64,000 nucleotides of DNA. Origin: Clostridia bacterium (GTDB lineage Bacteria; Bacillota; Clostridia; TANB77; UBA1234). Numbering within the stretch: the stretch's first letter is position 1; every line of letters starts with the position of its first letter. The DNA lies in the NCBI GenBank assembly GCA_900765095.1, contig CAAFRB010000012.1, positions 1,199 through 65,198 of the forward strand, in the 5' to 3' direction. The notes under the pieces were generated by a model that ran no database searches, was not told the origin of the DNA, and saw only the letters and a list, made by a program, of their open reading frames with translations. Below are positions 15,124-56,976 of the stretch, in pieces. The position numbers were made by a program, and so were the translations under genes.

Positions 15124-15291
15124 TTATTTGCCTAATGCCTTTTCTATTTCACTCTGTTTTGCTTTTAGTTTTTTCTTTGCCTCTTCTAATCTTTGTTTAT
15201 CTTTATATATTTTTTGATATTCGATAAGAGTTCTAGCATCATCTTCTGCTCTCCACTCTTTTTCTTCTTTACTTATTGTACTTTTACTCAT
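15124..15291 (-). CDS. Small K/E-rich coiled-coil protein (55 aa), translationally coupled to portal stop (ATGA overlap)
   Basis: ORF MSKSTISKEEKEWRAEDDARTLIEYQKIYKDKQRLEEAKKKLKAKQSEIEKALGK, found by manual translation; it is below the ORF-track size cutoff. Confidence 0.35.
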   Translation of the reverse strand: MSKSTISKEEKEWRAEDDARTLIEYQKIYKDKQRLEEAKKKLKAKQSEIEKALGK

Positions 15292-16988
15292 GCAACTTTT
15301 CCCTCCATCATATCTAATATTGTTTTTTCCATCTGTCCTGGTGGCAAAGCTTTTATTTGTTCTTGTTGTTCTGGTGGTAAGCTTTCTAAAAACTGTGCCA
15401 TTTGCTCATACTGGTTCTGCTGTGCTTGCATGTCTTGTTGCATTTGAATTTGTTCTTTTAATTTTGTAAGTAGTTCTGCTTTCTTTGGAATTAGTTCGTT
15501 TGGTATTCTTTCTAAGTAATCAATAAATTCAATTCTATCTTGCTGCAATAAATTGTCTAATGTTTGTACTGCAGATATTTCTGAATAATACGATGTTTCT
15601 CCAACATCTATACTTGTTTTTAAATCCATACCTTGCAATTGATTAAAATTAAACATAACTAATTGCCTTGTACCATCTTCAGTCGTCATTAGAACTGGTC
15701 TACTACCGTATTTAACCGACATCATATCAATTAGTATCATGACTTCTTGTTCTATTAAGTCGTATAAATTATCTTTTATATTCGCAAGTGGTACTGCAGT
15801 ACTCTTTTGAACTGCAATAATTGCTGAGGTATTCTTTGGATCTATCTGACCAAGTGAGGCATCAGATACGCCTAAGCACTCTTTTGTATATTGAAATGCT
15901 AAATCAATAACTTTTATAATATAATCACTCATATTAGCAGGTTCTAAATATCCTGCAACATCTTTTATACTTCTGCCACTTTGTGCTAATCCTTTTAACC
16001 CAATAGCTGAGCCAATTTCATTATTCCAGCTAGCAAGCATATCTTTATCATACACAGCTGTCGGAAATGCTGTCATCATCTGATGATAGATAATCATTGC
16101 AAACATCTTATTGATAGCAATCTGATTAGGACATATACCTTCAACTTCACCACGACCATGGAATGTATTTTTCTGCTTGTACCAATTTGAAAATGCAACA
16201 GGATATCTTGTTAAGCCTGTATTAACATTTTCAAATATAATGGCATCCTTTGTGCATTTAGTAACATACACCTTATTGTCTTTCTTTTCATAAAAATAGA
16301 TATACAATGCTTTTCCCTCATCGTCTCCTTCAATGTCTATTTCCGTCTTTGCAAAGTCACTTACTTGGAAATCTGTATCATAATCTTCTTTAATATTTTC
16401 ATTTCTTGATTTTGCTTCTTTCTTTAGATTTTTAACAGTATCTCTACCAACAATAATAATCCATGGTTGTTTTTCCACATCTCTTATATTAGCGTTGCCA
16501 AAACCCACATTAGTTGCATCTATTGTTTCAATCTCGATTTCTCCCAATAAATCCTTATAACTTCTATAAGGTTTCTTATTAGGATTAAATATAGTATGAA
16601 AGCACATATCACCTGTTACTGCGCCATCTAATAAAACATCTTTTGTTTTTATTTTAATGTTACTCTTTTCAAAGATGTTCTTTATTTCTGCATTTAAGAA
16701 ATCGCTATTATCTAACTCCCCTTCTGGCTTTGATGTATATTCAAGTGGTTCAACATTTACCGCTATATCTGATGTAGTTAAACTCGCAATTTTAAACTCT
16801 ATTATTCTTTTAATAATATTAAAGACTGGGTGAGGTAGCTTTTGGTCACCCTCTAATCCAGTCCATTGGTCTCCATTATAAAAATCATTCCATACTTTTA
16901 CGCTTTCATAGTAATTTTTATTAGGTCTAAAAGCACTATTATATGCAACCATGCTCTCATACTTTTTCCAATAATCTTTAGCTTCCAT
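15288..16988 (-). CDS. Portal protein, 566 aa
   Basis: Large gene immediately downstream of terminase large subunit; acidic Q-rich C-terminus typical of portals. Confidence 0.7.
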   Translation of the reverse strand: MEAKDYWKKYESMVAYNSAFRPNKNYYESVKVWNDFYNGDQWTGLEGDQKLPHPVFNIIKRIIEFKIASLTTSDIAVNVEPLEYTSKPEGELDNSDFLNAEIKNIFEKSNIKIKTKDVLLDGAVTGDMCFHTIFNPNKKPYRSYKDLLGEIEIETIDATNVGFGNANIRDVEKQPWIIIVGRDTVKNLKKEAKSRNENIKEDYDTDFQVSDFAKTEIDIEGDDEGKALYIYFYEKKDNKVYVTKCTKDAIIFENVNTGLTRYPVAFSNWYKQKNTFHGRGEVEGICPNQIAINKMFAMIIYHQMMTAFPTAVYDKDMLASWNNEIGSAIGLKGLAQSGRSIKDVAGYLEPANMSDYIIKVIDLAFQYTKECLGVSDASLGQIDPKNTSAIIAVQKSTAVPLANIKDNLYDLIEQEVMILIDMMSVKYGSRPVLMTTEDGTRQLVMFNFNQLQGMDLKTSIDVGETSYYSEISAVQTLDNLLQQDRIEFIDYLERIPNELIPKKAELLTKLKEQIQMQQDMQAQQNQYEQMAQFLESLPPEQQEQIKALPPGQMEKTILDMMEGKVA

Positions 16989-16993
16989 CTATC

Positions 16994-17194
16994 TCACTTC
17001 CTTTTACTTTGAATTGCATCATCTATTGAATAATTCATCAACTTGTCAAATTCTTCTTTTCTCTCTTTTTGTTTTTTCACTTCTTCTGTTTCAAAATAAG
17101 TCTCTTTTTTAGGTTCTACCTTTTCAACCTTTATAGTTATAAAATCCTTAAAAATCAATATTAATAATAATAAAATAATCAAATAATCTATCAT
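16994..17194 (-). CDS. Small membrane-anchored hypothetical protein (66 aa)
   Basis: N-terminal TM segment ILLLLILIF; sits between terL and portal. Confidence 0.35.
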   Translation of the reverse strand: MIDYLIILLLLILIFKDFITIKVEKVEPKKETYFETEEVKKQKERKEEFDKLMNYSIDDAIQSKRK

Positions 17195-18843
17195 TAAAAC
17201 ACCCCATAATTAACATAGTTTCTATAATTTCTTTCTTCTCTTTCTTCCTCTTCTGTTTTTGAAAGAGGTTCTTTTTCTATTTCCATAGATTGTTGTGGTC
17301 TTATATAATGAGCTATTGCCATTGCCATAACTCTATCATCATGTTTGCCTTGCTCTGCTTCAGCCCTGCCTTGTTCATTTTTTATAAAAGATAATCCTTC
17401 TCTTAATAATTCTGCACTGTTTATTGTGTCTATATCATCTCTTATCACTTTAACTAATCCTGCTATTATAATCGGTCTTGTTATACTAGTTGTTTTAAAT
17501 CCTTTCTTTAACTGACACTTATGTGTTGTACTATCTTCTACTTGTCTTTGATATAGTTTCGGATATTCTAATCTTTCTAGTTCTTTCTCAGGATAAGTAG
17601 AAAAGTTTACTTCAACGCCAATTAAAGCCTGATTATAATACATACCTAAGCAGTACATTTGCCTTGCATATAAATCTTCATCGGTCTTATGTGATAATTC
17701 TGCGACCTGTTCTCCAGATATATTATCTAGAACTTCGCCGACAAAATTATCACTGCCATCCCCCGCAGTATCACCACCAATTACATACGGTCTTTTAAGT
17801 TCAACATCTTTATATATCTTAATAATTCCATTCTTATCATCTTGCCATCTAATATTAGTTATTTTTAACCCATCATAATCATATAAAAAAGAACCTCGTT
17901 TAATAGGTTCCTTTAAATTTTGCAATCTTTCAATTATTTTCTCTTTATCAAATACACAATTGCCTGAACTTAAGAAAGCTTCTTCAGGGCAACTTGGATA
18001 TTCTTGTTTAAATAAATCTATATCTCCACGGCAATTGTTTTGAATACACCATCTACGCCAAGCCAATTGCTCATTATTTAAATTGTATAATTTTTTTAAC
18101 TTTGTTTCTTCATCTGTTAGTTCAAATCCATTATAAGGTTTTCTATATTCGTCGAGTTCCCACCAAGCACAAAATACTGGTACAAATTCACTGTTACCTG
18201 CCACTGCATCGTCCCACATATCTTTAAAATCATCATAACCATTTGCTGTAGATTCAATAACTATCATTGTATCTATTGTATCGGGAACCGCTTGTAATAA
18301 ACCTATCAATGTTTCTTTTTTCTTTCCTCCCCAAAAGGCATATTCTGATATATGTAGATTTTGAAATGTATCTGAACGACCAACAGTTGTGTTGCCTGCC
18401 GTCATACATTTAATAATTCCTTTTAGACCTGTACCATTTGTGGTGTGCTCTGTGCATTTTTCATTATCAAATACTAACTCTTTTGCATTAGATTTTTTTA
18501 TCTGAGGTTTTAACTCTTCTGGCAAATTATCTAAATATCTTTTAGACATATTAAATAAATTATCTGTTGCTGAGGCTTCATGCGTTATAATACCACTTTT
18601 AATATTAAATGCTGTAACAGTTTTCTTAAATATTATGCCTTCTGTTACTGTACTAAACCCCATTTGTCTAGCTTTTAGTACAATTACTCTTTGAGGTTTA
18701 CCTTGTTTATATTGCTCTGCTAAAGCATTATACAATTTCATCTGTGGCTTATTTAATTTAAGAGGAATTATCTTTGCATTTTTATCTTGGATTTTTAAGT
18801 ATTTTTCTATGTACAGTTTGGTGTTAATACTCATCTCCACCAA
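17194..18843 (-). CDS. terL: Terminase large subunit
   Basis: N-terminal ATPase region VLKARQMGFSTVTEG (Walker A-like) and C-terminal acidic nuclease region VIGGDTAGDGSD; overlaps the end of the small terminase gene. Confidence 0.85.
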   Translation of the reverse strand: MVEMSINTKLYIEKYLKIQDKNAKIIPLKLNKPQMKLYNALAEQYKQGKPQRVIVLKARQMGFSTVTEGIIFKKTVTAFNIKSGIITHEASATDNLFNMSKRYLDNLPEELKPQIKKSNAKELVFDNEKCTEHTTNGTGLKGIIKCMTAGNTTVGRSDTFQNLHISEYAFWGGKKKETLIGLLQAVPDTIDTMIVIESTANGYDDFKDMWDDAVAGNSEFVPVFCAWWELDEYRKPYNGFELTDEETKLKKLYNLNNEQLAWRRWCIQNNCRGDIDLFKQEYPSCPEEAFLSSGNCVFDKEKIIERLQNLKEPIKRGSFLYDYDGLKITNIRWQDDKNGIIKIYKDVELKRPYVIGGDTAGDGSDNFVGEVLDNISGEQVAELSHKTDEDLYARQMYCLGMYYNQALIGVEVNFSTYPEKELERLEYPKLYQRQVEDSTTHKCQLKKGFKTTSITRPIIIAGLVKVIRDDIDTINSAELLREGLSFIKNEQGRAEAEQGKHDDRVMAMAIAHYIRPQQSMEIEKEPLSKTEEEEREERNYRNYVNYGVF

Positions 18844-19204
18844 CTGCCTTTAAACTTTCTTCATAATTAAATACATTAGCTTGAACTTTGTCTACTGGTT
18901 TTTCTCCTACAGTATCTCTAATAAATTGTACCGCTGTTGAATCTCCTAATTTTGCTTTTTCTATTTGTTTTACTAATATAGAAGTTTGATTTATTAAGTC
19001 CTCATCTTCTATTCCCAACTCTTTCATATGATTTATTAAAGCTTCATCTTTTTCTGGCAATGACAATATTGTTTTTAGCATTTCTTTCATCATCTTTTTT
19101 TCTTTCTGTACCCTTTGGCTCGCTTCTCCACCTTTTCTTGCTATCTCTTCTCTTTCTCGTGGTTCTCTCGAAGCTATCGGTATTAAATTTTGTTCGTTTG
19201 CCAT
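18824..19204 (-). CDS. terS: Terminase small subunit (putative)
   Basis: Small basic/acidic protein directly upstream of terL. The likely start is MANEQN at 19204, with RBS AAAGAGGTGAG. Confidence 0.55.
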   Translation of the reverse strand: MANEQNLIPIASREPREREEIARKGGEASQRVQKEKKMMKEMLKTILSLPEKDEALINHMKELGIEDEDLINQTSILVKQIEKAKLGDSTAVQFIRDTVGEKPVDKVQANVFNYEESLKAVGGDEY

Positions 19205-19308
19205 TGCTCTCACCTCTTTCACATTCTATTCTTTTAGTACAATCTTTACACTTGTGTTTCATACAATATTCAAAATCAGATATCGTATCACCTCTTAGGT
19301 TAATACAT

Positions 19309-19347
19309 ACAAAAAAGAGACTAGCCCTGCTCAACTAATCTCTTTGA
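19309..19347 (-). terminator. Rho-independent terminator between late regulator gene and terS
   Basis: On the minus strand: AAAGAGA stem, 18-nt loop, TCTCTTT stem, then TTTTTT. Confidence 0.5.
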
Positions 19348-19387: not shown

Positions 19388-19807
19388 TTAATTTGCACTG
19401 TCTTTCACTTTTTTGCATAAATATAAAAATAATGCTTTTCCATGCATTTTAGTTATTGCACTATATGTATATCCCATTTTATCTGCTATTCTTTCAAAGT
19501 TTAATTCCTCTATGTATCTTCTATGAAGCAATGTTCTATACGGTTCTTCTACTCTATCAATCTTTTCTTCTATTTTTAACTTTTCTTGCTCTGCTAAAAT
19601 CCAGCGTTCTTCATATTGTCTTGCTATATCTGCCATTTTAACAGCATTATCCGCAACTTTATCGCTGTTGCTTGTCCCTCGTGGCATATCTGATATTATT
19701 GATGTCATCTTTTCGGCTCTTGTTTTATATTTCTGATATTCTTCTAAAGTTTCTTCAACCTTTTCTCTTGCATATTTATATTGTAATAATTCTTCCTTAG
19801 CTGTCAT
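19388..19807 (-). CDS. Sigma-70 region-4-like / ArpU-family late transcriptional regulator
   Basis: C-terminal HTH RRYIEELNFERIADKMGYTYSAITKMHGKAL resembling sigma region 4; immediately upstream of the packaging genes. Confidence 0.5.
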   Translation of the reverse strand: MTAKEELLQYKYAREKVEETLEEYQKYKTRAEKMTSIISDMPRGTSNSDKVADNAVKMADIARQYEERWILAEQEKLKIEEKIDRVEEPYRTLLHRRYIEELNFERIADKMGYTYSAITKMHGKALFLYLCKKVKDSAN

Positions 19808-19853: not shown

Positions 19854-20126
19854 TCATTCTTTATAACAGGCGGTCCGTATTTTAAAATATTTTTCAGGCT
19901 TTTCTAACATTGCTTTTACGTCTTCACTGCTTAGCTCTATTTCTTTTGAAATACAATCTTTATATGTATCTACCGTATCATCTTGTAGTTCTTTAATTTC
20001 TTCTTCTACTTTTGCTATTTCTTCTCTTATATCTAAATCATCAGCATTACATGCTAATCTAGCATCCTGTGTTACATGTAGTGTTTCTAATCTCTCTTGT
20101 AATTTTTCTATACTATTTTCTTTCAT
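19854..20126 (-). CDS. Hypothetical phage protein (90 aa)
   Basis: ORF with RBS; acidic helical sequence. Confidence 0.4.
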   Translation of the reverse strand: MKENSIEKLQERLETLHVTQDARLACNADDLDIREEIAKVEEEIKELQDDTVDTYKDCISKEIELSSEDVKAMLEKPEKYFKIRTACYKE

Positions 20127-20138
20127 TTAAAACACCTC

Positions 20139-21350
20139 CTAATTTTTAGCTTTAAAATTATATATTGGTCTTATTATTTTTTTGATTTCTACTGTATCTT
20201 GTATATTATCTATTATTTCTTGCATAGGCTTGTAAACAAACGGAGCTTCATCTATTGTTTCTATTGCAACTGATGTTGTATATATGCCTTCCATAGATTT
20301 TTTAAATTCTTCTAACGTAAATGTTTCTTTTGCTTTTATTCTTGACATTATTCTTCCTGCTCCATGTGGTGCTGAGAAATTCCAATCTTCATTTCCTTTA
20401 CCTATTGCAATAATACTTCCATCTTTCATATTTATTGGTATTAATACTTTTTCTCCTTTTCTAGCTGATATTGCTCCTTTACGAACTATATTATCTTTAA
20501 ATGAAATATAATTATGAACTGTTTCAAACATTATCCACTCAAATTTTTCATATTCTTCTTTATTAAAATAATTTTTTATAATTTCATGTGCTATATTAAC
20601 TCTGTTGCAGCACGCGTATTCTTGACATATTTGCATATCGTGTAAATACATTTCCCTATATTTGCCTTCTAAATAACACAAATTTTTTGGCAAATTGGGT
20701 TTATTATTTTTATATTCATTTTCTACATTTTTTAATGCACTTTGTATTTCTGACTTCTTTCCTTGCTCTTTATATGTTTTTATTATTTCTTCTTTTCTTT
20801 GATACATTTTTTCCTTATCAGAGCATAATTCTATAGCTAAATTTTGATAATACTCTGCAACCTGCTTTCCCATATTTCTTGAACCTGTATGTATTACTAA
20901 ATACTTATTATTTTCATCATCAATATCTATTTCTATAAAGTGATTTCCACCGCCTAATGTTCCTATTGATCTATTAAACTTTTCTGTTTCTTCAAGCTTA
21001 CTTAAACAATACAAATCATTTATTTTATCAAAATCACATAATTTATGTTCTCTTATATTTCTTCCAGCAGGTATAAATTTATTTACTATACTGTCTAATC
21101 TTTCCAAATTCAAATCAATATTTCCTAGTTCTATACATAGCATTCCACAGCCTATATCTACACCAACGATATTAGGTATAACTTTATTTCCTAAATCTGC
21201 TGTAAAACCTATTACACATCCCTTTCCCGCGTGAACATCAGGCATTATCCTTACTTTACAGTCTTTAAAAGATTCTTGCTCTAATAATTCAGATATCTGT
21301 TCTACAGCCTCATCTTCAATATTGTTAGTAAATATCTTTAAATCTTTCAT
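20139..21350 (-). CDS. rtcB: RtcB-family RNA 3'-phosphate ligase (phage-encoded)
   Basis: RtcB metal-binding motifs RIMPDVHAGKGCVIGF, VGVDIGCGM and HTGSRNMGKQVAEYY are in the expected order. The 403-aa length is consistent with compact RtcB proteins. Confidence 0.75.
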   Translation of the reverse strand: MKDLKIFTNNIEDEAVEQISELLEQESFKDCKVRIMPDVHAGKGCVIGFTADLGNKVIPNIVGVDIGCGMLCIELGNIDLNLERLDSIVNKFIPAGRNIREHKLCDFDKINDLYCLSKLEETEKFNRSIGTLGGGNHFIEIDIDDENNKYLVIHTGSRNMGKQVAEYYQNLAIELCSDKEKMYQRKEEIIKTYKEQGKKSEIQSALKNVENEYKNNKPNLPKNLCYLEGKYREMYLHDMQICQEYACCNRVNIAHEIIKNYFNKEEYEKFEWIMFETVHNYISFKDNIVRKGAISARKGEKVLIPINMKDGSIIAIGKGNEDWNFSAPHGAGRIMSRIKAKETFTLEEFKKSMEGIYTTSVAIETIDEAPFVYKPMQEIIDNIQDTVEIKKIIRPIYNFKAKN

Positions 21351-21353
21351 AAT

Positions 21354-21569
21354 CTATCCTCCTTTTACAAGCAAAAACAAATATTTCATGCTTGTTACTA
21401 TATTTGCTGAAATTAAGTAGCCCAAGCTCATCATTATCCAAAAAACTTCTGCTGCACAATTCTTTTTTGATAGTACACTATGGAATATTTCACATATGCA
21501 ATCAACTACCAAATATAAACAAAATATTCCTAGATACAAATTAAAATTCATTATTAAATTAAATATCAT
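21354..21569 (-). CDS. Small hydrophobic membrane protein (71 aa)
   Basis: Two predicted TM segments; AT-rich and low complexity, so it may not be a real gene. Confidence 0.3.
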   Translation of the reverse strand: MIFNLIMNFNLYLGIFCLYLVVDCICEIFHSVLSKKNCAAEVFWIMMSLGYLISANIVTSMKYLFLLVKGG

Positions 21570-21597: not shown

Positions 21598-21903
21598 TTA
21601 TTTTATACACACACCCAACTTGTTCATTTCACTTACTATAGTGTTATAATCACTCGGTGTTAAATGCTTAGTTCGGTACGCATCTATGTTGCTATAGATT
21701 TCTTTCATGATTTTCGGAAGTCTTTCTTTACCAAAACCAAGTTTGTAATTTATTGTATAAGCAGTCATATAAAACACTATATCTGATACAGATTTCATCC
21801 CGTCTTTTACGCCTTGTTCATAAACGTCCGATAAAGTCTTGTCCATTATCATTTTGTTGCTAACACCTAAATGGTTACATCTTCTACGTTCTGCTCTGTT
21901 CAT
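21598..21903 (-). CDS. Hypothetical phage protein (101 aa)
   Basis: ORF only. Confidence 0.4.
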   Translation of the reverse strand: MNRAERRRCNHLGVSNKMIMDKTLSDVYEQGVKDGMKSVSDIVFYMTAYTINYKLGFGKERLPKIMKEIYSNIDAYRTKHLTPSDYNTIVSEMNKLGVCIK

Positions 21904-21915
21904 TTTAATCCACCT

Positions 21916-22281
21916 CTATATTTTTTCTGATAAATCATCATTGTGTATTCCAAAAGGTAACTCAAAACCTTTTTCAAACACCCATAAATGATACATGTTT
22001 GCTTCATCTATCAACCTATCTTTTCTTGGAAATACTTCTATTGCTACTCTGTCTTCTCCAAATAATGTATCTTTTATCCATTGCTTTTCTGCCCAAGGTA
22101 TATCTGTACTGCTTGCATTTCTAATTGCACAATGAGTTACTTTTCCCCATTTAGTTTCTATGTCTCTAGTCAAACACACATATTTGTTTTCAAACTTGTA
22201 GACATGATTTATATTTGCAAACCAACCCGTTCCTATTCTCAATGATTTTGGACTAGGTTTTTCTATCCAAATTTTATTCAT
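21916..22281 (-). CDS. Hypothetical phage protein (121 aa)
   Basis: ORF coupled to the RusA gene. Confidence 0.4.
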   Translation of the reverse strand: MNKIWIEKPSPKSLRIGTGWFANINHVYKFENKYVCLTRDIETKWGKVTHCAIRNASSTDIPWAEKQWIKDTLFGEDRVAIEVFPRKDRLIDEANMYHLWVFEKGFELPFGIHNDDLSEKI

Positions 22282-22615
22282 TTAACACCTCTTCAATCTC
22301 TAAAATAACTTTAAACTCTTTGCCATATTCGAATTTATCAGTAAAACCAATTACCCAGTTACGGTTATCATTTTCGAGTTTTTCACATTTTTGTAATGCA
22401 TCTAGTATAAACTTCTTAGCAAAGCAAATATTATCTAAATCTCGCCTTTTATTTGCTTCAACCCATGTAAAGTTAATTCTTATTGGCTTATTAAACCTAG
22501 GTAATTGATTTATAAAATAGCCTATATCATTCTCAACATTGTTTTTCATTTTTCCAGCAGAATATCTATTTCTCCTGCACTCATTTATGTACTCATTCAA
22601 GCTTGGAAGCTTCAT
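22274..22615 (-). CDS. rusA: RusA-family Holliday junction resolvase
   Basis: MKLPSLNEY start and catalytic-region motif RRDLDNICFAKKFILDAL (the D-x-D-N-x-x-x-K pattern of RusA). Confidence 0.65.
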   Translation of the reverse strand: MKLPSLNEYINECRRNRYSAGKMKNNVENDIGYFINQLPRFNKPIRINFTWVEANKRRDLDNICFAKKFILDALQKCEKLENDNRNWVIGFTDKFEYGKEFKVILEIEEVLNE

Positions 22616-22955
22616 CGGTATCTCGATTTTTATCATTTGCTTTCTCCATTCTTCTTTTTATTTTTTTAGCATACTCTAGTACAGCTTGGGCACTTCTGCC
22701 ATTAAACAAATCATATCTAGAAATCTCTTGTGGTGTCATACCCTCTTTTAGGAAGTCTTTGATTATCCTGCTGTCGCTATCAGTCCAATTTTTATACACT
22801 TCTGTTCTCTTCTTTTTTGGCTCGTGCAGAAGATCATATCTGTGAAAACATTCTTTGTAGCCAAATTTAGTTTCAAAAACCATTAAATCCTTTTGTTCAT
22901 TCACTTTATCTGGATAAACTTCAAGCAATTCATATTCTTTTCCTGCGATTTTCAC
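22593..22955 (-). CDS. Hypothetical phage protein (120 aa)
   Basis: ORF only. Confidence 0.4.
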   Translation of the reverse strand: MKIAGKEYELLEVYPDKVNEQKDLMVFETKFGYKECFHRYDLLHEPKKKRTEVYKNWTDSDSRIIKDFLKEGMTPQEISRYDLFNGRSAQAVLEYAKKIKRRMEKANDKNRDTDEASKLE

Positions 22956-22960
22956 TTATT

Positions 22961-23170
22961 TCACCTCCTAAGTTTATATTTAATATAATCTTTCACCTTG
23001 CCGTTTTTTCTCTTGCGTACCCATTCTTTTTCGAATACATATCCGTCTTTTTGTAAGTTGTCTATTCTTGCTCCCAACTGAGTTATGCCTAAGTGAGCAT
23101 AGGCTTCATAGCTGCTTATACTTCCGTGTTTTTGTATGTATTCAATAATCTGTGCTTTCTGATTTTTCAT
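22961..23170 (-). CDS. Small winged-helix DNA-binding protein (69 aa)
   Basis: HTH-like segment SISSYEAYAHLGITQLGARIDNLQKDGY with a basic C-terminus. Confidence 0.4.
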   Translation of the reverse strand: MKNQKAQIIEYIQKHGSISSYEAYAHLGITQLGARIDNLQKDGYVFEKEWVRKRKNGKVKDYIKYKLRR

Positions 23171-23185
23171 TTGTATCCCTCCAAT

Positions 23186-23938
23186 TTAGTTCATATAAAA
23201 TCTATTTAAGTCACCAAATTGTGTATGTTCTGCTTTATAAGCATTAGCTATTCCTTTTTGCTCTTTATCTTTCTTTTTATTCTCGTTTTGTGCATCAAGC
23301 AGACTTTTCACATTTGCTTTTTGCCAGTTATTTAATATCGCCTTTATGTAATTTATTGTTTTTGCACCAGCTTCAACTGCTAATTGCATTGCATATATGA
23401 TAATGTCATCTGCAAAATCGCTCCTATAACTATTCAAAGTTTCAAAAATAAACGGACTTATAGTGCCAAAATTCTGTTCGTAGAATTTAACAACCTCGTC
23501 AACACAACTGTCAGGTTGATGAGAACCGTCAGCACGACTGTCGCTCTCTACTACATTTACATTTTCATTATTATTTTCATTTACATTTTCATTATCATTT
23601 TCATTAGGGGTTACGTTGGGGTTTTCTTCAATAACCCCAGTGGGGTTTTTTAGGGGTTTTTCTTTTTTAGGTCTACCTCCTAACTTTCCAAATTCTGCAC
23701 CCTTACAGCCATTCTCATATCTAGTGTTATTAGCATTTAGTTGCGGCTTTATTAAAGTAAATACTGCTTTTTCTATCCCGCTAAGTTTCTCTTCTTTTTC
23801 TTCAAACTGATATGCAAAAATAGTATTATATAGTTTTGTTTGCATCTCTGATGGTAGTTCTTTTATTGCGTCATAAAAACTCCTATAAAAAATAAAACTA
23901 TCTTTTTTCACGTTCCACCAACTTTCTCTGTTGTACAA
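23186..23938 (-). CDS. DnaD-domain phage replisome organizer / replication initiator
   Basis: N-terminal replisome-organizer region and C-terminal DnaD-like domain YAMQLAVEAGAKTINYIKAILNNWQKANV. An Asn/Glu-rich linker is encoded by 12-bp iterons. Confidence 0.7.
   Translation of the reverse strand: MYNRESWWNVKKDSFIFYRSFYDAIKELPSEMQTKLYNTIFAYQFEEKEEKLSGIEKAVFTLIKPQLNANNTRYENGCKGAEFGKLGGRPKKEKPLKNPTGVIEENPNVTPNENDNENVNENNNENVNVVESDSRADGSHQPDSCVDEVVKFYEQNFGTISPFIFETLNSYRSDFADDIIIYAMQLAVEAGAKTINYIKAILNNWQKANVKSLLDAQNENKKKDKEQKGIANAYKAEHTQFGDLNRFYMN
23555..23606. repeat. Four-plus tandem 12-bp iterons (ATTTACATTTTC / ATTAT(T/C)ATTTTC) followed by a G-rich inverted repeat; putative phage origin
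   Basis: Direct reading: atttacattttcattattattttc atttacattttcattatcattttc atta, then ggggtt..aacccc..tggggtttttt aggggttttt at 23607-23665. Confidence 0.6.
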
Positions 23939-24014
23939 AAAAGAGGTAGTACAATCATTTGTCTATGTAGCCCTGACTTGCACTACCTCCAATCTTGAAG
24001 TATTTTTTATTTAT

Positions 24015-24425
24015 TTAGAATGGTAGATCATCATCTGTAACTTTAAAACCAGAATTACTTGTTTGTTCTGTTGCAAATGGATCTCCCATATTTTCTTTCT
24101 TACTATCTGCAAAATAAACATGTTCTGCTACTACCTTTGTTGTATAAACTCTTTTTCCATCTTTATCATCATAACTACCAGTTTCAATTCTTCCTGTTAC
24201 TCCAACTTGTTGACCTTTTTTAAAATATTTCGATACAAATTCTGCTGTCTTGTTCCATGCTAGTATTGTTATAAAATCTGCTTTTTGTTCATCTTCGGGT
24301 TTTACATATGCTCTATTAACTGCTAAATTAAATTGCGTAACCATGACATTACTTTGTTGTGTATATCTCACTTCAGGTTCTGCAGTTAGTCTTCCGATTA
24401 AATTCACACTATTCATTCGTATCAT
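24015..24425 (-). CDS. ssb: Single-stranded DNA-binding protein
   Basis: OB-fold N-terminus MNSVNLIGRLTAEPEVRYT and acidic tail ending DDDLPF. Confidence 0.9.
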   Translation of the reverse strand: MIRMNSVNLIGRLTAEPEVRYTQQSNVMVTQFNLAVNRAYVKPEDEQKADFITILAWNKTAEFVSKYFKKGQQVGVTGRIETGSYDDKDGKRVYTTKVVAEHVYFADSKKENMGDPFATEQTSNSGFKVTDDDLPF

Positions 24426-24666
24426 CTCCTAAAATTTCTTTCATTTTATCTAAAAATGTTTCTTGTGCTATTATAATTTCTTCTATTTTTCGATCATCGA
24501 TTTCATTTTTAGCCATTTTGTCGAAAATACTTTCTCTTATATCAGTTGTTTTTTTATCAAGATACATTGCTTTTATTTTAATATTTTTATCTTTAAATTT
24601 CTCCAACATTCTTTCTAACATTTCTCCTAATTCTCTCATCAACTTTTTTTCATTATCCATTTTCAT
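24409..24666 (-). CDS. Hypothetical phage protein (85 aa)
   Basis: ORF only. Confidence 0.4.
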   Translation of the reverse strand: MKMDNEKKLMRELGEMLERMLEKFKDKNIKIKAMYLDKKTTDIRESIFDKMAKNEIDDRKIEEIIIAQETFLDKMKEILGDDTNE

Positions 24667-24722
24667 TCTTTCCTTTCTATTTTTTCTCTCTTAGTTTAAT
24701 CAATCTCGATTGCCAATATTTT

Positions 24723-24980
24723 TTATTGCCGATGTACTTTCAGATGGCACTCCAAACATAATAAAAATAAATTATTAAAATCATCTATTTTGCTTCTATC
24801 TTCAGATTTATAAATTATATGATGAATATGTACTCCAGCTTGTCCACAAAGTCCGCATTTACCTTTAAAAAGCTTTTTAATTTTGTTTCGATTAGTTTTA
24901 CTAATGTCTTTTGGCTTTGCTTTTAAGACCGTTTTTGAGTTCTTAGGAAATGCTATTCCAACCCAATCTTTCATCTCCAA
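24723..24980 (-). CDS. HNH endonuclease (small)
   Basis: CGLCGQAGVHIHHIIY ... LLCLECHLKVH zinc-finger HNH motif. Confidence 0.7.
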   Translation of the reverse strand: MEMKDWVGIAFPKNSKTVLKAKPKDISKTNRNKIKKLFKGKCGLCGQAGVHIHHIIYKSEDRSKIDDFNNLFLLCLECHLKVHRQ

Positions 24981-25510
24981 GCCTCCTTTAATCGTTCAAG
25001 TTCAGCAGGTGTCAGTGTTTCTATATTTTGCAATTTGCATTCTTCCACGATATTGTCTACTAGCCTTGACATTTCTTTGCTGTCATAAACACTTGAGCCA
25101 TACCAAGCCACCACATTCGTATAGCCATTCAATTTAGAAGGTACTGTCTCACATAACCAGCCTAAGCCGTTGTTTTGCCATACCGCTTTATACCTTTCTA
25201 CTGCCTCGTTTTTTACTGGTACTATTTCTCTGACCCCTACTTCATATATCGCCTTTCTGTACACTTCTACCGGCTTAATATTTAACTTTTCAGCAAGTTT
25301 ATTGATTAAAACCCAGCAATATGCGTTTGCATCCCAAGAACGTTTTTTACGATATTTCTTAGCTTCTACAGATAACTTGTCTAAGTCTTTTATCTCATCG
25401 AGTTCTGCAAGTGCCGCTCTTTCGTTCATTATGAATGTTATTTTTGGTTTATTAGTTCTAAAATCGATGCTTACATCCGATATTGTTCCTGTGAATTTCA
25501 AACTTATCAC
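24971..25510 (-). CDS. Hypothetical recombination-module protein (179 aa)
   Basis: ORF sits between the HNH gene and the MBL-fold gene; no recognisable motif. Confidence 0.4.
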   Translation of the reverse strand: MISLKFTGTISDVSIDFRTNKPKITFIMNERAALAELDEIKDLDKLSVEAKKYRKKRSWDANAYCWVLINKLAEKLNIKPVEVYRKAIYEVGVREIVPVKNEAVERYKAVWQNNGLGWLCETVPSKLNGYTNVVAWYGSSVYDSKEMSRLVDNIVEECKLQNIETLTPAELERLKEAWR

Positions 25511-26142
25511 CTCTCTATGTGTTCGTGCATAAAAACATATTCTGAATTTTCTCCCATATTATTTAGTAAAAATTCTGTGGCTTGTTGCTTACTCAAATGG
25601 CTATCTTTTGCTCTAAACTCATATACATACTCACAATTTTGTTGCTTTTCTTTTATTCTCTCTTCTATCTCATCTTCGTCATAATTGCCCTCTATAAGAT
25701 ACAAGTCATAATTTTTTGCTGATATTCCTTCAACTGTTCTAGTATCTGTCATATAAATCACTTTATAATCATCAAATAGTACTCTGTAACCGCATTGTGG
25801 TACATCGTGATATAATTTGATTGGTACAACTTTAAATAGCTTATAATCGTATCTCGTGCCAATTTGGAGTACATCTATATTTTTTCTTTCAACTCCACAT
25901 TCAAGCAATGGTTTTAATAGCCAATCACAACAAGCGAACCTCAAAGTTGGTCTTTCTTCTGCTAATCTCTTTATTGTTTCTTTTTTAAAATGATCTGAAT
26001 GAATATGCGTAAGAAGTACTATTTTTAATTTTTTATAATACTTCTCAAGCCTTTTAAAACTCACTCCACAATCTATTAAAATAAAATCTCCAATTATTAC
26101 TGCATTTCCTGTGCTACAACTAGATATGATTTTATATCTCAT
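25507..26142 (-). CDS. Metallo-beta-lactamase-fold hydrolase (phage recombination-associated)
   Basis: LLTHIHSDH (HxHxDH) motif. Confidence 0.7.
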   Translation of the reverse strand: MRYKIISSCSTGNAVIIGDFILIDCGVSFKRLEKYYKKLKIVLLTHIHSDHFKKETIKRLAEERPTLRFACCDWLLKPLLECGVERKNIDVLQIGTRYDYKLFKVVPIKLYHDVPQCGYRVLFDDYKVIYMTDTRTVEGISAKNYDLYLIEGNYDEDEIEERIKEKQQNCEYVYEFRAKDSHLSKQQATEFLLNNMGENSEYVFMHEHIER

Positions 26143-26821
26143 TCATTGATACCTCTTTTGTTTCTTCCGACTGTTCTGTAACATCAGCTTGTACTTCAAT
26201 TGGTTCCTGTTGTGGAATTTCTTGTTGCATTTCTTCAGCCTCGTACATTCCAGCCAAATCTTCTACAAATGTTTCTCTTAATGCTCTTACTTTTGCAACC
26301 TTTTCAACCATTGTTGCTCCTTTATTTCCCCAATTTGAATTTAATTGACCTTGCCCTGTTTTCTGTGCAACTTCATTAAAACTTACACTTGAATATGTAG
26401 GGTGTGACCAATCTTTTCTAAATACTCTTGCCCATCCACCTACAAGTTGTTCTGTTCCTAACCTAAATGTTCCTTGTCTTTCTTCTATAGTTCCATCTTC
26501 TTTTTGAACTATAATTCCACATTCCATACCATCATAATTTGGGTTTAAAACAGCTCTTTTCAATATTGCATCTTTTCCGACAACTAATTGGGCTGGTGTT
26601 CCTGCTTTGTATTTAATCAGATATGCTTCTCTCAAAAATGGATTTAATTTTCTAACTTTACAAAGTTCTGTAAATAACTTAAATTCTTGATTTGTAATAG
26701 GAACATCACTGCCAACAATATATTCTTGTACTATTTTTTTGCTTAATTTTATTTCTTGCCCTTCCACATCAAATTTAACTACTAGTTCTTGTTTTTGTTC
26801 TGCTGCTTCATTATTACTCAT
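26132..26821 (-). CDS. recT: RecT-family single-strand annealing protein
   Basis: RecT-like core NPNYDGMECGIIVQKEDG...QLVGGWARVFRKDW. The start was moved to MSNNEAAEQ (ATG 26819-26821, RBS AAGGAGTG), which removes the overlap with the upstream HNH gene. Confidence 0.65.
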   Translation of the reverse strand: MSNNEAAEQKQELVVKFDVEGQEIKLSKKIVQEYIVGSDVPITNQEFKLFTELCKVRKLNPFLREAYLIKYKAGTPAQLVVGKDAILKRAVLNPNYDGMECGIIVQKEDGTIEERQGTFRLGTEQLVGGWARVFRKDWSHPTYSSVSFNEVAQKTGQGQLNSNWGNKGATMVEKVAKVRALRETFVEDLAGMYEAEEMQQEIPQQEPIEVQADVTEQSEETKEVSMNEI

Positions 26822-26828
26822 TTCAAAA

Positions 26829-27362
26829 TCACTCCTTAAACTTAAAAATATATCCACCAGCTGTTTTTCTCTTCTTATTACAACATTCGCTGATATGTCC
26901 AGATTTAATTCCGGTCTGTCTTTCAACTTCCATCATTGATTTCCATTCTTTAATAAAAATATTATTTTTACTAAATTGTTGAATTTCTTTATGGTTATGG
27001 TGTAATTCATTAAATTTTCCAACGTTTACTTTGCCCATATGCCCTTGTTTTTTGGCATAGTCTAGGTTTTTTTGATGAGTACACCATTCTAAATTTTCAA
27101 TTTTATTATTCTTCCTGTTATTATCTTTGTGATTTACTTCTGGTAAATTATTGGGATTAGGTATAAATGTTTCTGCCACTAATCTGTGTAAATAGTAATT
27201 TTTATATTTTCCACTAACATTTATTTTGCAAAACAAATATCCATTTCCATTATCATAATTCTTTCGATTGTTCTTATTAACTCTATGCCTTATATTGCCT
27301 AATGAACTAATTTCGTAATTAGGATGTTTTAAAATTACCTTCCATATTTCATTCATAATCAT
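26829..27362 (-). CDS. HNH homing endonuclease (NUMOD4 + HNH_3 type)
   Basis: N-terminal WKVILKHPNYEISSLGNIRH (NUMOD4-like) followed by YLHRLVAETFIPNPNNLPEVNHKDNNRKNNKIENLEWCTHQKN (HNH_3). Confidence 0.7.
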   Translation of the reverse strand: MIMNEIWKVILKHPNYEISSLGNIRHRVNKNNRKNYDNGNGYLFCKINVSGKYKNYYLHRLVAETFIPNPNNLPEVNHKDNNRKNNKIENLEWCTHQKNLDYAKKQGHMGKVNVGKFNELHHNHKEIQQFSKNNIFIKEWKSMMEVERQTGIKSGHISECCNKKRKTAGGYIFKFKE

Positions 27363-29747: not shown

Positions 29748-29883
29748 GTTAACTTGATAATCATAGTTTAATTAACTTTAAGTTATTTGTCAATATATTT
29801 TTGCAAAATAATATTAACTTTCTGTTAAAGCGTTCTCGCTGTAAGAAAAAATTATTTACAGAGTTAACTTATTGTTATATAAT
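29748..29883. promoter_or_regulatory. Divergent switch region: four TTAACTT repeats and a plus-strand promoter TTTACA-17-TATAAT (29855-29883) for the CI-like repressor; TTGACA (complement of 29788-29793) for the minus-strand early operon
   Basis: Sequence reading of the -35/-10 hexamers with 17-bp spacing and repeated TTAACTT elements. Confidence 0.55.
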
Positions 29884-29901
29884 GTTAATCGAGGTGAAAA
29901 A

Positions 29902-30495
29902 ATGAACCGTTTAAAAGAATTACGCGAAAAAAAAGAATTACTTCAAAGTGATGTTGCAAAGTTCTTAGGTATATCCAGTCCAGCTTATAGTTATTATGAG
30001 GCTAATAAAAGAAATATGCCTGCTGAAACCGCAATAAAACTATCCAAATTCTTCAATGTTTCTGTTGATTACTTATTGGGAGTAGATACGACGAATAAAA
30101 GGCTATTACCAGTTCTAGGTACCGTAAAAGCTGGCTATAATTACTTAGCACAAGAAAACGTAATTGATTATATAGACCCATCTATGAATATCACTGACCC
30201 CGAGAACTATTTTGGTCTTATCGTCAAAGGCGATAGCATGGCTCCTCTATTCGATGAGGGCGATTATTTAATAGTACATAAATTGGATGGAGAATTTAAT
30301 ACAAATGATATAGGTATAGTCTTAATTAACGGAGATGAAGCTACAATCAAAAAGGTAGTAAAAACAGACACAGGTATCGAACTGCATGCTTTTAATCCTT
30401 ATTATCCAGTTAAAAAATTTACTTATGAGGAAATGGAAAAATTGCCAGTTAAGGTTGTTGGAGTTGTAGTTAGACAAATTAGGAATTGGAAGTAG
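29902..30495 (+). CDS. CI-like phage repressor (XRE HTH + S24 LexA-like peptidase domain)
   Basis: N-terminal HTH LLQSDVAKFLGISSPAYSYYE and C-terminal S24 motifs GDSMAPLFDEGDYLIV ... IKKV. Confidence 0.85.
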   Translation: MNRLKELREKKELLQSDVAKFLGISSPAYSYYEANKRNMPAETAIKLSKFFNVSVDYLLGVDTTNKRLLPVLGTVKAGYNYLAQENVIDYIDPSMNITDPENYFGLIVKGDSMAPLFDEGDYLIVHKLDGEFNTNDIGIVLINGDEATIKKVVKTDTGIELHAFNPYYPVKKFTYEEMEKLPVKVVGVVVRQIRNWK

Positions 30496-30505
30496 GTGTA
30501 TTCAA

Positions 30506-31069
30506 ATGGAAAGAAAAATTTATTGTAAAAAATGTGGTTCAGAATTAGATGTCAATAAAAAATGTACTAAATGTGGAAAACAATATTTCAAATTTAATTT
30601 ACGAGTATTTCTCTTAATATTTTTTATTATTTTGCTGATTTCAATCGTTTGTTTTGAAACATATTATATTTATATTCATCAACAAGATGTAAAAAAATTA
30701 GAAAACAATTTTGCCACTCAAACAGAAAATCTAGAAAAAGAAAAGGACGAAACGTTAAAAACTTTACAAAAATATATTCAATATGGACTAGATACTTGTG
30801 ATGAATTACTTTTTTGGCATGACAACGCAGTAATAGTTTCTAATAATGCTACAAAAAAATATCATAATTATGGTTGTGAAGATTTAATGTTAAATAGTTT
30901 TTGGATATATAATACTAAAGCTGCTGAAGAAAAAGGATACACAATGTGCAAAAAATGTTACGACAAAGAACAAAATTCATCATCTAGCTCTCTTATTCCT
31001 TTAGGATTAGCCATAGACAAGATGAAATACTTAAATAATTCCGATAAAGGAGATATATCGTATGAATAA
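30506..31069 (+). CDS. Membrane protein with N-terminal zinc ribbon (CKKCGSEL...CTKCG), one TM helix and a Cys-containing C-terminal domain; prophage cargo gene
   Basis: Motifs read directly; lies between cI and int. Confidence 0.5.
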   Translation: MERKIYCKKCGSELDVNKKCTKCGKQYFKFNLRVFLLIFFIILLISIVCFETYYIYIHQQDVKKLENNFATQTENLEKEKDETLKTLQKYIQYGLDTCDELLFWHDNAVIVSNNATKKYHNYGCEDLMLNSFWIYNTKAAEEKGYTMCKKCYDKEQNSSSSSLIPLGLAIDKMKYLNNSDKGDISYE

Positions 31070-31367
31070 AAATCCGAAAGAAAAAGCGGATGATTTTTTT
31101 ATAGGTCTTGGAGCACTGGCTATAATTATTATTCCGGCTTTTTTGTTTAATGACTACCAAAAAGTAAAGAAAATAGAAAAATTAGAAAGTGCATATTATA
31201 AAATGGAAGATAAAATTTTGGAAATGTCAGATTATAATGATAACATATTTAAAAAGACAAAAGCAAATGAAACATATGATTTCTACAATTTTGATAATTT
31301 TGAAAGAGTTTTATTCGAGTACGAAGATACATTATTAGAATTAACACAACCTAATAAAAGTGATTAG
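31062..31367 (+). CDS. Small membrane protein (101 aa), prophage cargo gene
   Basis: TM segment LGALAIIIIPAFLF; start overlaps the preceding gene. Confidence 0.4.
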   Translation: MNKNPKEKADDFFIGLGALAIIIIPAFLFNDYQKVKKIEKLESAYYKMEDKILEMSDYNDNIFKKTKANETYDFYNFDNFERVLFEYEDTLLELTQPNKSD

Positions 31368-31462
31368 TAATTCTATTTAAAAATTTCAATTTTAAAATAA
31401 TTAATTTTATTATAAAAGAGGTTATAATATGTCATAAAATTATAATTCTGAAAGGAATAAAT

Positions 31463-32494
31463 ATGGAAGAAAATAAAAATTTAACAAATTCTGGAATTGA
31501 TAGGCAAAATATGCTTAATAACACTATTGCTTTAACTGCAATTCAGAACGAAATTCATATTCCAGGAACAATGTTTGAAAATGAATATAAATTTACTAAA
31601 AAACAAATAGCTGATTTCTATGAGGTTGATGAAAGAACTATTGATAGATATGTTGAACAGTTCAATGCTGAATTGTCAAAAAATGGATATGAAATACTGA
31701 GAGGAAAAAAACTTAAAGATTTTATAGCTTTATACAATTCTAAAGTCGACGACATTAATGTCGTCGACATACCAAAAACCGTTCCAGCTCTAAGTATTTT
31801 CAATTTTAAAGCTTTTTTAAATTTAGGAATGCTGTTGACAGACAGCGAGAAAGCAAAGATGATTAGAGCTTTAATACTAGACATAGTTATTGATGTAATA
31901 AATAAAAAAACTGGGGGAAATACTAAATATATCAATCAAAGAGATGAGGATTTTATAGATTCGGCTTTTAACGAAGAAAATTATCGTAAAGAATTTACAA
32001 AAGCTTTAAATAACTATGTTGTACCAGGCAAATCAAAATTCTCAATATATACAAATAAAATATATGTTAGTATTTTTAAGGAAAACGCTGCAGAATATAG
32101 AAAAATATTAAATTTACAAAAAAATGATAAAACAAGAGATACTTTTTACGCAGAAATACTTGATGTCATTGCATCCTATGAGATTGGTTTAGCAAGCGAA
32201 CTGCAAAAAGCATTTAATATAAAAGGCTCACCATTAGAATATACAGAAGTGGATGAAATATTCAAAAATTTTGAAAATCAAGCTTTGTGGATCCCAACTA
32301 TAAAAAAAGCCCGTACTAAAATGGCAAGTAGAGACTTAGCTTTTAGGGATGCACTACACGAAAAGCTTATGCATTATTTGGAGCCACTTGAAAAAGAAGA
32401 ATTTGAAAGATTTTTAGGCGAAAGAAGTAAAGATTTATCAGAACGTCTAAGTGAAGCACAAGATGTATTAAAACGTTTAAAGGAGCGTGAATAA
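31463..32494 (+). CDS. RhuM-family-like protein (putative DNA-binding partner of Doc)
   Basis: N-terminal KilA-N/HTH-like segment YKFTKKQIADFYEVDERTIDRYVEQF; ~340 aa, typical of RhuM-family proteins; immediately upstream of and coupled to a Doc/Fic gene. Confidence 0.45.
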   Translation: MEENKNLTNSGIDRQNMLNNTIALTAIQNEIHIPGTMFENEYKFTKKQIADFYEVDERTIDRYVEQFNAELSKNGYEILRGKKLKDFIALYNSKVDDINVVDIPKTVPALSIFNFKAFLNLGMLLTDSEKAKMIRALILDIVIDVINKKTGGNTKYINQRDEDFIDSAFNEENYRKEFTKALNNYVVPGKSKFSIYTNKIYVSIFKENAAEYRKILNLQKNDKTRDTFYAEILDVIASYEIGLASELQKAFNIKGSPLEYTEVDEIFKNFENQALWIPTIKKARTKMASRDLAFRDALHEKLMHYLEPLEKEEFERFLGERSKDLSERLSEAQDVLKRLKERE

Positions 32495-32496
32495 CT

Positions 32497-32931
32497 GTGA
32501 TTATTTACTTTCCTAAAGAACAAATTAAAGAAATTCACCAAAAAACAATAGAATTTAGTGGTGGCGGTAATACAGGAGTATTAGATATTGGTAAAGTTGA
32601 ATCTGTTTTAGAGCACATTCAAAATGATGATTACTATCCAACTTTTATAGACAAATTGACTCATTTATTTTTTTCAATTTGCAAATTTCACGCTTTCGCA
32701 GATGGTAATAAGAGATTAGCTATAACATTGAGTTTAAATTTTATTTTAATTAATGGTTATTTATCTGTTTCACAGTGCTTTATGAGAGAAACGGAAAATA
32801 TTAGTTATTATGTAGCAGCCGGCAATATTGATAAAGAGTTACTTCATGAAATTCTAGAGGCTATTATATATGACAACTGGGAAGAAAATGAAGAACTAAA
32901 ATTAAGATATCTTAACGCAATAAACAAATAA
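32497..32931 (+). CDS. doc: Doc (death-on-curing) / Fic-family toxin
   Basis: Fic/Doc motif HAFADGNKRLAITL. GTG start 2 nt after the upstream stop; RBS AAGGAGCG. Confidence 0.75.
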   Translation: MIIYFPKEQIKEIHQKTIEFSGGGNTGVLDIGKVESVLEHIQNDDYYPTFIDKLTHLFFSICKFHAFADGNKRLAITLSLNFILINGYLSVSQCFMRETENISYYVAAGNIDKELLHEILEAIIYDNWEENEELKLRYLNAINK

Positions 32932-33084
32932 AAAGATAACATATCAACTTGGCGGAAGGCATGTTATCTCTTCTCTATTCACAAATGATAGCTCACTTGT
33001 AAGATGTTTATATTTTAAACTATTTTTTTACCTCTTACAAGTGGAACAAATGTTTATATTTTAACACTTAAGGAGGTATTCTTT

Positions 33085-47715: not shown

Positions 47716-47791
47716 GGGCCATTAGCTCAGTTGGCAGAGCACTTGACTTTTAATCAAGTTGTCCGCAGTTCGAATCTGCGATGGCTCACCA
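47716..47791 (+). tRNA. tRNA-Lys (anticodon TTT)
   Basis: Cloverleaf built by hand: acceptor GGGCCAT/ATGGCTC, D-loop AGCTCAGTTGGCAGAGC, anticodon loop CTTTTAA, T-loop GTTCGAATC; CCA encoded. Confidence 0.85.
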
Positions 47792-47798
47792 TGTATCC

Positions 47799-47873
47799 GG
47801 CCCGATGGTCAATCGGTTAAGACATCGCCCTTTCACGGCGGAGTGGGGAGTTCGACTCTCCCTCGGGTCACCA
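47799..47873 (+). tRNA. tRNA-Glu (anticodon TTC)
   Basis: Acceptor GGCCCGA/TCGGGTC, anticodon stem-loop TCGCC-CTTTCAC-GGCGG, T-loop GTTCGACTC; CCA encoded. Confidence 0.8.
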
Positions 47874-47877
47874 TATT

Positions 47878-47953
<76 letters not shown>

Positions 47954-55304: not shown

Positions 55305-55327
55305 TTGAAAGGAATGATATTCCAAAT

Positions 55328-55768: not shown

Positions 55769-55784
55769 AGAGGAACCTAAATTT

Positions 55785-56684: not shown

Positions 56685-56688
56685 TTTT

Positions 56689-56898: not shown

Positions 56899-56976
56899 CG
56901 AACCATTACTTTCTTTTCTAATTTGTATAATAAAACATTATCTATATTCTGGTAATTTTATAAAATGATATGTAGT

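Follow-up and report, generated by a model that had tools for sequence, protein, structure and literature searches.

Why would a temperate phage of gut Clostridia carry an RNA ligase of its own, and is that ligase equipped to undo the damage done by the host's RNA-cleaving defenses? The question is raised by an rtcB gene within a 64,000-nucleotide stretch of a Clostridia bacterium assembly (GCA_900765095.1, contig CAAFRB010000012.1, positions 1,199 to 65,198 of the forward strand; hereafter the window), where it forms part of an integrated prophage. We propose that the gene encodes a catalytically competent, stand-alone RtcB that serves as a counter-defense by repairing cleaved tRNAs, and we put the probability of this statement as a whole at roughly 0.55; that the protein belongs among the RtcB ligases is, taken by itself, something we hold with high confidence. 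The gene is an ordinary, already annotated phage accessory gene, and the hypothesis attached to it has been in print since 2011 and again since 2021. What we add is a residue-level check of the active site, a placement nearer to RtcB1, the absence of partner genes, and the finding that the gene travels as a mobile cassette in three gut phage backbones.

The rtcB open reading frame (ORF) occupies positions 20139 to 21350 on the minus strand and runs without interruption from an ATG start through its stop codon, encoding 403 amino acids. Its translation contains both motifs quoted in the initial annotation, RIMPDVHAGKGCVIGF and IVGVDIGCGML, and it is preceded by a strong Shine-Dalgarno sequence, aaAGGAGGatagattATG, whose AGGAGG core lies 7 nucleotides before the start. 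The product matches the Pfam family RtcB (PF01139) with 205.8 bits (E 1.8e-60; gathering cutoff 27) and phrog_1075, "tRNA splicing ligase," with 439.7 bits (E 2.9e-131), residues 2-402 covering profile positions 64-442 of 459. These scores and the translation bear out the earlier identification of an RtcB gene at this place, and the gene is best described as encoding an RtcB-family 3'-phosphate/2',3'-cyclic-phosphate RNA ligase. The description of the enzyme as "compact" holds in comparison with archaeal and eukaryal RtcB (481-507 amino acids) but not with E. coli RtcB, which has 408.

To judge catalytic competence, we relied on an alignment of 18 sequences, the window protein and 17 relatives (35-80% identity) drawn from genome and viral contigs. 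Its invariant columns include D38, H40, D65, C68, N136, H137, F138, E140, H154, and R158, and further H279, N280, H329, R333, Y373, K374, and K400. A profile built from this clade matches the solved RtcB of P. horikoshii (Ph; 1uc2/4dwq) at E 1e-52 over nearly its full length, in two stretches, and maps the conserved residues onto Ph D65, H67, D95, C98, N202, H203, F204, E206, H234, H329, H404, Y451, and K480. Specifically, D65, C68, H137, H154, and H279 fall on the residues of the binuclear metal site (Ph D95, C98, H203, H234, and H329), the contacts to guanosine triphosphate (GTP) N136, F138, E140, Y373, and K400 fall on Ph N202, F204, E206, Y451, and K480, and H329, within SAPHGAGR, aligns with the nucleophilic histidine of the HGAGR motif in both enzymes (Ph H404 and E. 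coli H337). Pairwise alignment with E. coli K-12 RtcB (RtcB1, b3421) likewise pairs D65, C68, N136, H137, H154, R158, H279, and H329 with D75, C78, N167, H168, H185, R189, H281, and H337. We take the conserved residues to be the ligands of the two manganese ions, the GTP contacts, and the guanylylated histidine of established RtcB enzymology, so that the predicted active site comprises D38, H40, D65, C68, N136, H137, H154, R158, H279, H329 (the histidine carrying guanosine monophosphate, GMP), and R333. The initial annotation had named the loss of conserved metal-binding Cys and His residues as the observation that would speak against it; all of these ligands are retained. By homology, then, the window protein probably has RtcB ligase activity, and its match to the solved enzyme points to an RtcB fold.

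One feature sets the protein apart from the well-studied enzymes. Residues ~173-222 (DNA ~20685-20834) form a K/E-rich insertion of about 45 residues, predicted to be helical, which is absent from E. coli RtcB1, from archaeal relatives, and from the solved P. horikoshii enzyme, and which reached a local confidence of 77-86 within an otherwise poor structural model. It is seen in phage and cellular members of the clade alike and is therefore specific to the clade rather than to phages.

The gene is under purifying selection: comparison with relatives of 66-80% identity gives a dN/dS (ratio of nonsynonymous to synonymous substitution rates) of 0.15-0.23, and the near-identical copies on contigs L004 and L042 differ from it at synonymous sites only, with 0 nonsynonymous differences. 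A neutral passenger or decaying gene without current function, for which nothing specific speaks, would be expected neither to show such a ratio nor to keep an intact reading frame, a strong ribosome-binding site (RBS), invariant catalytic residues, and an identical allele across three backbones, and we consider it extremely unlikely.

That allele is found in the backbone of the window's prophage and in two otherwise different gut phage backbones. The second backbone (L004, L029, L044, and L045) carries a GP3_package small terminase, a Terminase_6N/Terminase_3 large terminase, and a P22-type portal only 62% identical to that of the window; the third (L042, L046, and L047) has an SPP1-type portal and differing flanking genes. 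Block identities from blastn and MAFFT, together with the gene maps of the three backbones, delimit a cassette at 19975..21364 that consists of the RBS, rtcB, and the 5' part of a 90-amino-acid ORF and is 98-99.7% identical in DNA between the window and the two foreign backbones (elsewhere at L042:9987-11376 and L044:1270-3440). Its junction is the same in both foreign backbones, at window position 21364, 14 bp upstream of the ATG, where, over a few bases, identity drops off from about 99% to the level of chance; at the other side, high identity stops within or just past the 90-amino-acid ORF. The 71-amino-acid ORF upstream (21354..21569) thus lies outside the shared cassette, and the 5' part of the 90-amino-acid ORF moves with rtcB. 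Finding the same allele behind the same junction in different backbones marks rtcB as an exchanged accessory cassette, and this gene-boundary mosaicism shows that the exchange was recent. In all three backbones the gene sits at the junction between replication and packaging genes, as expected of a selected accessory gene. Hadza gut samples are the source of further contigs with this allele, and the isolate name of L004, a Clostridia metagenome-assembled genome (MAG), is of the human-gut style.

The wider distribution places the gene in a well-populated phage family. An identical protein is deposited in NR as "MAG TPA: tRNA-splicing ligase RtcB [Caudoviricetes sp.]" and occurs on 13 contigs among the matches listed and on 23 contigs among those read from 29 index blocks, and at least 8000 homologues are found at E ≤ 1e-10. 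In a curated collection of 50,697 phage records, 681 (~1.3%) hold a homologue, 629 of them over at least 80% of its length, with the largest groups in phages of Mycobacterium (221), Bacillus (63), and Listeria (58); most of the matches listed from this collection are annotated as RtcB or tRNA ligase. The phage RtcBs of phrog_1075 (Bacillus SPO1-like, Listeria, Clostridioides, Mycobacterium cluster K1, and uncultured gut phages) are the closest known counterparts, matched at full length, with 48-61% identity to the deposited phage proteins and the same hypothesized role; however, the cultured phages that carry them are mostly large, virulent, and equipped with tRNA genes, whereas the window phage is mid-sized, temperate, and without tRNA genes. 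In some Bacillus phages, H28 (MH707436.1) and H31 (OM728300.1), the insertion of a homing endonuclease divides the gene into two parts, and a MAG copy (L022, 6001-7009) is broken into two frames, whereas the window copy is intact; NCBIfam also holds two intein-containing RtcB models.

Among the cellular relatives, the genomic neighborhoods speak of RNA repair. In Clostridium (L001-L003, about 60% identity; L001:3654-9049), RtcB stands beside TROVE/Ro60-vWA proteins and WYL-type regulators; elsewhere it adjoins a DUF2828/DUF7788 protein (L006, 58%; 4462-5934), an HTH-WYL-WCX regulator (L018, 50%; 7230-8177), or an RlaP nucleotidyltransferase (L007 and L034, 56%; L007:7213-8241). Such neighborhoods lend independent support to a function in RNA repair, and they suggest an origin of the phage gene in an operon of this kind, from which it was taken without its partners. 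The Rsr(Ro60/TROVE)-Y RNA-RtcB system and the Firmicute TROVE/WYL/RtcB operons (L001-L003, L006, and L018) include the nearest relatives found outside a phage context, at 50-63% identity, and these operons share the clade-specific insertion, but the copy in the window's prophage stands alone, its partners and regulators lost. Across 32 related loci no partner gene recurs, except in these RNA-repair operons, which are lineage-specific and confined to a few cellular genomes. The same neighborhoods bear on whether the ligase might instead seal or cap DNA 3'-phosphate/5'-OH ends during phage replication and recombination. Its position after the RecT-SSB-RusA recombination genes would suit such a role, and, according to work of the Shuman laboratory, E. 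coli RtcB reportedly joins DNA 3'-PO4 to 5'-OH ends and some paralogues are said to cap DNA. Titles in the reference list of PMC9304027, as far as titles go, support the capping activity. Yet the partners of the cellular relatives belong to RNA repair (TROVE and RlaP) and not to DNA repair, and the cassette moves independently of the recombination genes, so that a DNA-end reaction appears very unlikely.

If RNA is the substrate, is it tRNA or the ribosome? Two E. coli enzymes, EcRtcB1 of K-12 and EcRtcB2 from the intact EcRtcB2-PrfH locus of another E. coli genome, were fetched as references. EcRtcB1 repairs tRNAs, whereas EcRtcB2 acts only on 30S subunits with the colicin-E3-type cut and, in 70S ribosomes, depends on PrfH to make the damage accessible (Tian et al. 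2022, PMC9304027). In sequence, the window protein is nearer to the tRNA-repairing enzyme: by BLASTP it is 30% identical to EcRtcB1 over the whole length (155 bits) against 24% to EcRtcB2 (80 bits), and a hidden Markov model of its close clade scores 206 bits on EcRtcB1 and 82 bits on EcRtcB2. It is true that the top NCBIfam matches are by name RtcB2-type models (PRK09588 and TIGR03073) and that some phage homologues have been deposited as "release factor H-coupled RctB family protein," but neither equivalog cutoff is reached (119.4 against 407 for PRK09588 and 97.3 against 271.8 for TIGR03073). Nor is a partner at hand. Window positions 10139-31000 are 100% identical over 20.8 kb to L040:351-21212, part of a 243-kb metagenome scaffold (ena:ERZ28621447, scaffold_6), and this identical 21-kb locus holds no PrfH or other RF-1-domain gene; the flanking 71- and 90-amino-acid ORFs give no RF-1 match. 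The EcRtcB2-PrfH pair, which belongs to the same superfamily and repairs toxin-made breaks, thus differs from the window protein in identity, in score, and in its partner. Repair of the ribosome (16S rRNA) in the manner of EcRtcB2 is therefore highly improbable, and of the two targets that the initial annotation had offered, tRNA and rRNA, the latter is the less likely one, since the protein is nearer to EcRtcB1 than to the ribosome-specific EcRtcB2 and PrfH is lacking. No RtcA, archease, Pnkp, or ATP-dependent RNA ligase turns up near rtcB or among the precomputed Pfam hits of the identical locus either, and family scans found no RtcR among the neighbors of rtcB. In this respect the gene departs from the E. 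coli rtcBA-rtcR operon, whose RtcB resembles the window protein in size and in its aligned catalytic residues but is accompanied by RtcA and RtcR and is without the insertion of about 45 residues.

The position of rtcB within the prophage suggests when the ligase would be made. Between about 29.7 kb and 1.1 kb every gene lies on the minus strand, in an order that leads from replication and recombination to packaging and virion genes. The replication/recombination module begins with DUF1351 and HNH_3 and continues, at 21598..26926 and upstream of rtcB, with RecT, an MBL-fold hydrolase, NinB-like, HNH, SSB, DnaD-like, RusA, and DUF7694 genes and a 101-amino-acid ORF without assigned function. 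The 71-amino-acid ORF, strongly hydrophobic and with a good RBS, stops 3 bp short of the start of rtcB; gene calls on the identical contigs L040, L041, and L043 include it, and the family profile scans gave no match to it. Downstream, a 90-amino-acid ORF with a good RBS (19854..20126, minus strand), likewise without a family match above cutoff in these scans, precedes a small sigma-70 region-4/ArpU-like transcriptional regulator (19388..19807, minus strand), presumably the late-gene activator, which matches phrog_36 (66.4 bits) and phrog_248 (59.3 bits), falls short of the TIGR01637 ArpU cutoff (31.2 against 43.1 bits) at near full-length coverage, and has a subthreshold Sigma70_r4 match. The flanking modules confirm a phage-borne RtcB at the early-to-late junction; the 90-amino-acid ORF, however, separates it from the regulator, upstream of which it had been said to lie immediately. 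From DUF7694 through rtcB to the regulator, the intergenic gaps measure 3-46 bp, and the first sizeable gap (165 bp) follows the regulator and holds a terminator-like hairpin with a T-run (19314..19345, minus strand). This gene order suggests that rtcB is cotranscribed with the early genes and the late activator. Beyond the gap lies the packaging module (15288..19222, minus strand), with a phrog_2412 protein (18824-19222), the large terminase (17194-18843), a 66-amino-acid ORF, and the portal (15288-16988), for which the identical locus L040 gives a P22_portal Pfam match, followed by head and tail genes on the same strand.

The lysogeny module lies on the plus strand at 29872..34203 and comprises a CI-like repressor (29872-30495), the two-gene system PDC-M59A/B (31463-32931), and a tyrosine integrase (33085-34203); host genes begin at 34403, beyond the integrase. 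A repressor together with a tyrosine integrase abutting host genes identifies the element as an integrated prophage, temperate, mid-sized, and at least 34 kb long. No exact attachment (att) direct repeat of at least 11 bases was found when the integrase-distal junction was compared with the left 2.3 kb, so the prophage appears to continue beyond the left edge of the window. This arrangement is informative for another explanation, in which the prophage RtcB benefits the lysogen by shielding the host from toxins that cut tRNA or rRNA, whether delivered by competitors (colicin-like, contact-dependent inhibition, or type VI secretion) or released by other prophages. RtcB2-PrfH does guard E. coli against colicin E3-type toxins (PMC9304027), RNA signals with 2',3'-cyclic phosphate (2',3'-cP) ends are generated by prophage induction in Salmonella, and the prophage carries cargo of this kind elsewhere, in PDC-M59. 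But rtcB lies inside the lytic early operon, on the strand opposite to the repressor and defense genes and about 9-12 kb from the lysogeny module, the usual site of such cargo, and it has no separate promoter above chance; we regard a lysogen benefit as unlikely.

In our preferred reading, repair of host-cleaved tRNA as a counter-defense, the enzyme would work as follows. By homology, GTP would guanylylate H329 at a two-Mn2+ center formed by D65, C68, H137, H154, and H279, and the GMP would pass from H329 to an RNA 3'-phosphate, which RtcB itself can form, if it is not already present, by hydrolyzing a 2',3'-cyclic phosphate; the 5'-OH end would then attack the activated 3' end and reseal the break. 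Standing at the end of the early string together with the late activator, the gene would probably supply the ligase before the burst of late protein synthesis. The most likely substrates of RtcB would be tRNAs or other RNAs of the translation machinery that metal-independent host RNases have cut upon infection or induction, with anticodon nucleases, HEPN RNases, or toxin RNases as candidate cutters. A proposed analogy is phage T4, in which Pnkp and Rnl1 answer PrrC by resealing tRNA cut by a host anticodon nuclease; the likeness would be one of function only, as these enzymes are not homologous to RtcB and heal and seal by a kinase/phosphatase and an ATP-dependent ligase, in contrast to direct GTP-dependent sealing, and no Pnkp or Rnl gene was found among the prophage genes scanned.

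The chemistry of the ends narrows the range of opponents. Metal-dependent nucleases (PIN/VapC and Toprim effectors) produce 3'-OH/5'-P ends that RtcB is unable to seal. As it joins only 2',3'-cP or 3'-P ends to 5'-OH ends, only metal-independent RNases are candidate opponents; those that fit are PrrC, RloC, colicin E5/D, MazF-type, and HEPN RNases. VapC-like RNases, which had been listed among the defenses to be tried, thus drop out on general enzymology. Of the initial annotation, the intact, phage-borne RtcB at the early-late junction is supported and the counter-defense role plausible; corrections concern the immediate adjacency to the regulator, the VapC-like opponents, and rRNA as an equal target. 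The idea itself has precedents: Pope et al. (2011, PMC3203893) raised the speculation that RtcB helps a phage withstand a host defense that cleaves tRNA, and Iyer et al. (2021, PMC7824862) stated that jumbo-phage RtcB ligates RNAs cut by metal-independent RNases. In Salmonella, both phage infection and prophage induction activate the host rtcBA genes, and RNA with 2',3'-cP ends therefore does arise under these conditions.

Several observations weigh against this reading. Promoter and terminator scans stayed at chance (27 sigma-70 promoters found against 29.4 expected, and 1 terminator against 1.4, the hairpin being weak alone), and expression timing is therefore not demonstrated. A model of the protein from AlphaFold, made from a shallow alignment (15 sequences, ~80% identity), was unusable and was not used (mean pLDDT 46, pTM 0.45). 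A search of the 30-kb host flank with PADLOC and Pfam for anticodon nucleases, HEPN proteins, or other RNase defenses, for which a look at the host genome had been advised, returned only weak helicase/ATPase noise, and no healing or partner enzymes were seen in the prophage. A full-text search of the literature found annotations and speculation but no experiment on any phage RtcB. Finally, an Rfam scan of the whole window found no tRNA genes in the prophage; its only hits were three host tRNAs at 47.7 kb, with no Y-RNA, tRNA-like, or other RNA near rtcB. This last result also bears on a role for the ligase in processing phage RNA, by splicing or circularizing either a transcript of the phage or a split RNA gene. 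In archaea and eukaryotes RtcB does serve as the tRNA-splicing ligase, but the prophage shows neither a tRNA nor an intron nor any other Rfam family, its annotated genes include no splicing-endonuclease homologue, and we find phage RNA processing most improbable. Analogy and published speculation nevertheless leave a counter-defense role for the phage enzyme somewhat better than even.

It is tempting to speculate that the cassette, with its insertion, has a specialized substrate, namely the DNA or RNA 3'-phosphate ends of phage replication and recombination or the product of an undiscovered RNase defense of gut Clostridia, though we rate this as quite unlikely. If it were so, the spread at an identical junction into three backbones would mark ongoing selection by that defense, and a small inducible prophage would offer a tractable system for a first demonstration of phage RtcB function. 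The single instance described here is of little weight: a deposited and named protein, from a family with a PHROG to itself, to which textbook speculation already assigns this role. Whether phage RtcB in general is a counter-defense, and against which nucleases, does matter: the literature searched offers no experimental test of the idea, though about 1.3% of sequenced phage records carry the gene. A short temperate phage with a clean single-gene rtcB cassette and naturally swapped backbones could serve as a simple knockout and complementation system.

Several further features of the window deserve mention. The recombination module holds two HNH-type endonuclease genes on the minus strand: one at 26829-27362, HNH_3/NUMOD4 and homing-endonuclease-like, lies between DUF1351 and RecT and overlaps the extended RecT ORF, and the other, at 24723-24980, encodes an 85-amino-acid HNH protein. 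PDC-M59, situated between repressor and integrase on the plus strand, is a candidate two-gene defense system, of which PDC-M59A (343 amino acids) matches its family at full length with 349 bits and PDC-M59B (144 amino acids) belongs to the Fic/Doc family and passes the NCBIfam Doc-toxin cutoff (TIGR01550, 47.6 against 38.65). Doc toxins target EF-Tu and not RNA, and no connection between PDC-M59 and RtcB is therefore obvious. The 243-kb scaffold L040 could serve to survey the rest of the host genome. In the host flank of the window, genes resembling a coupling protein and a pilin of type IV secretion systems lie together with DnaB_2 and IstB/DnaC-like genes at 53682-59231 on the plus strand, beside tRNA-Lys, tRNA-Glu, and tRNA-Thr genes at 47716-47953, which suggests a second mobile element, conjugative or integrative.

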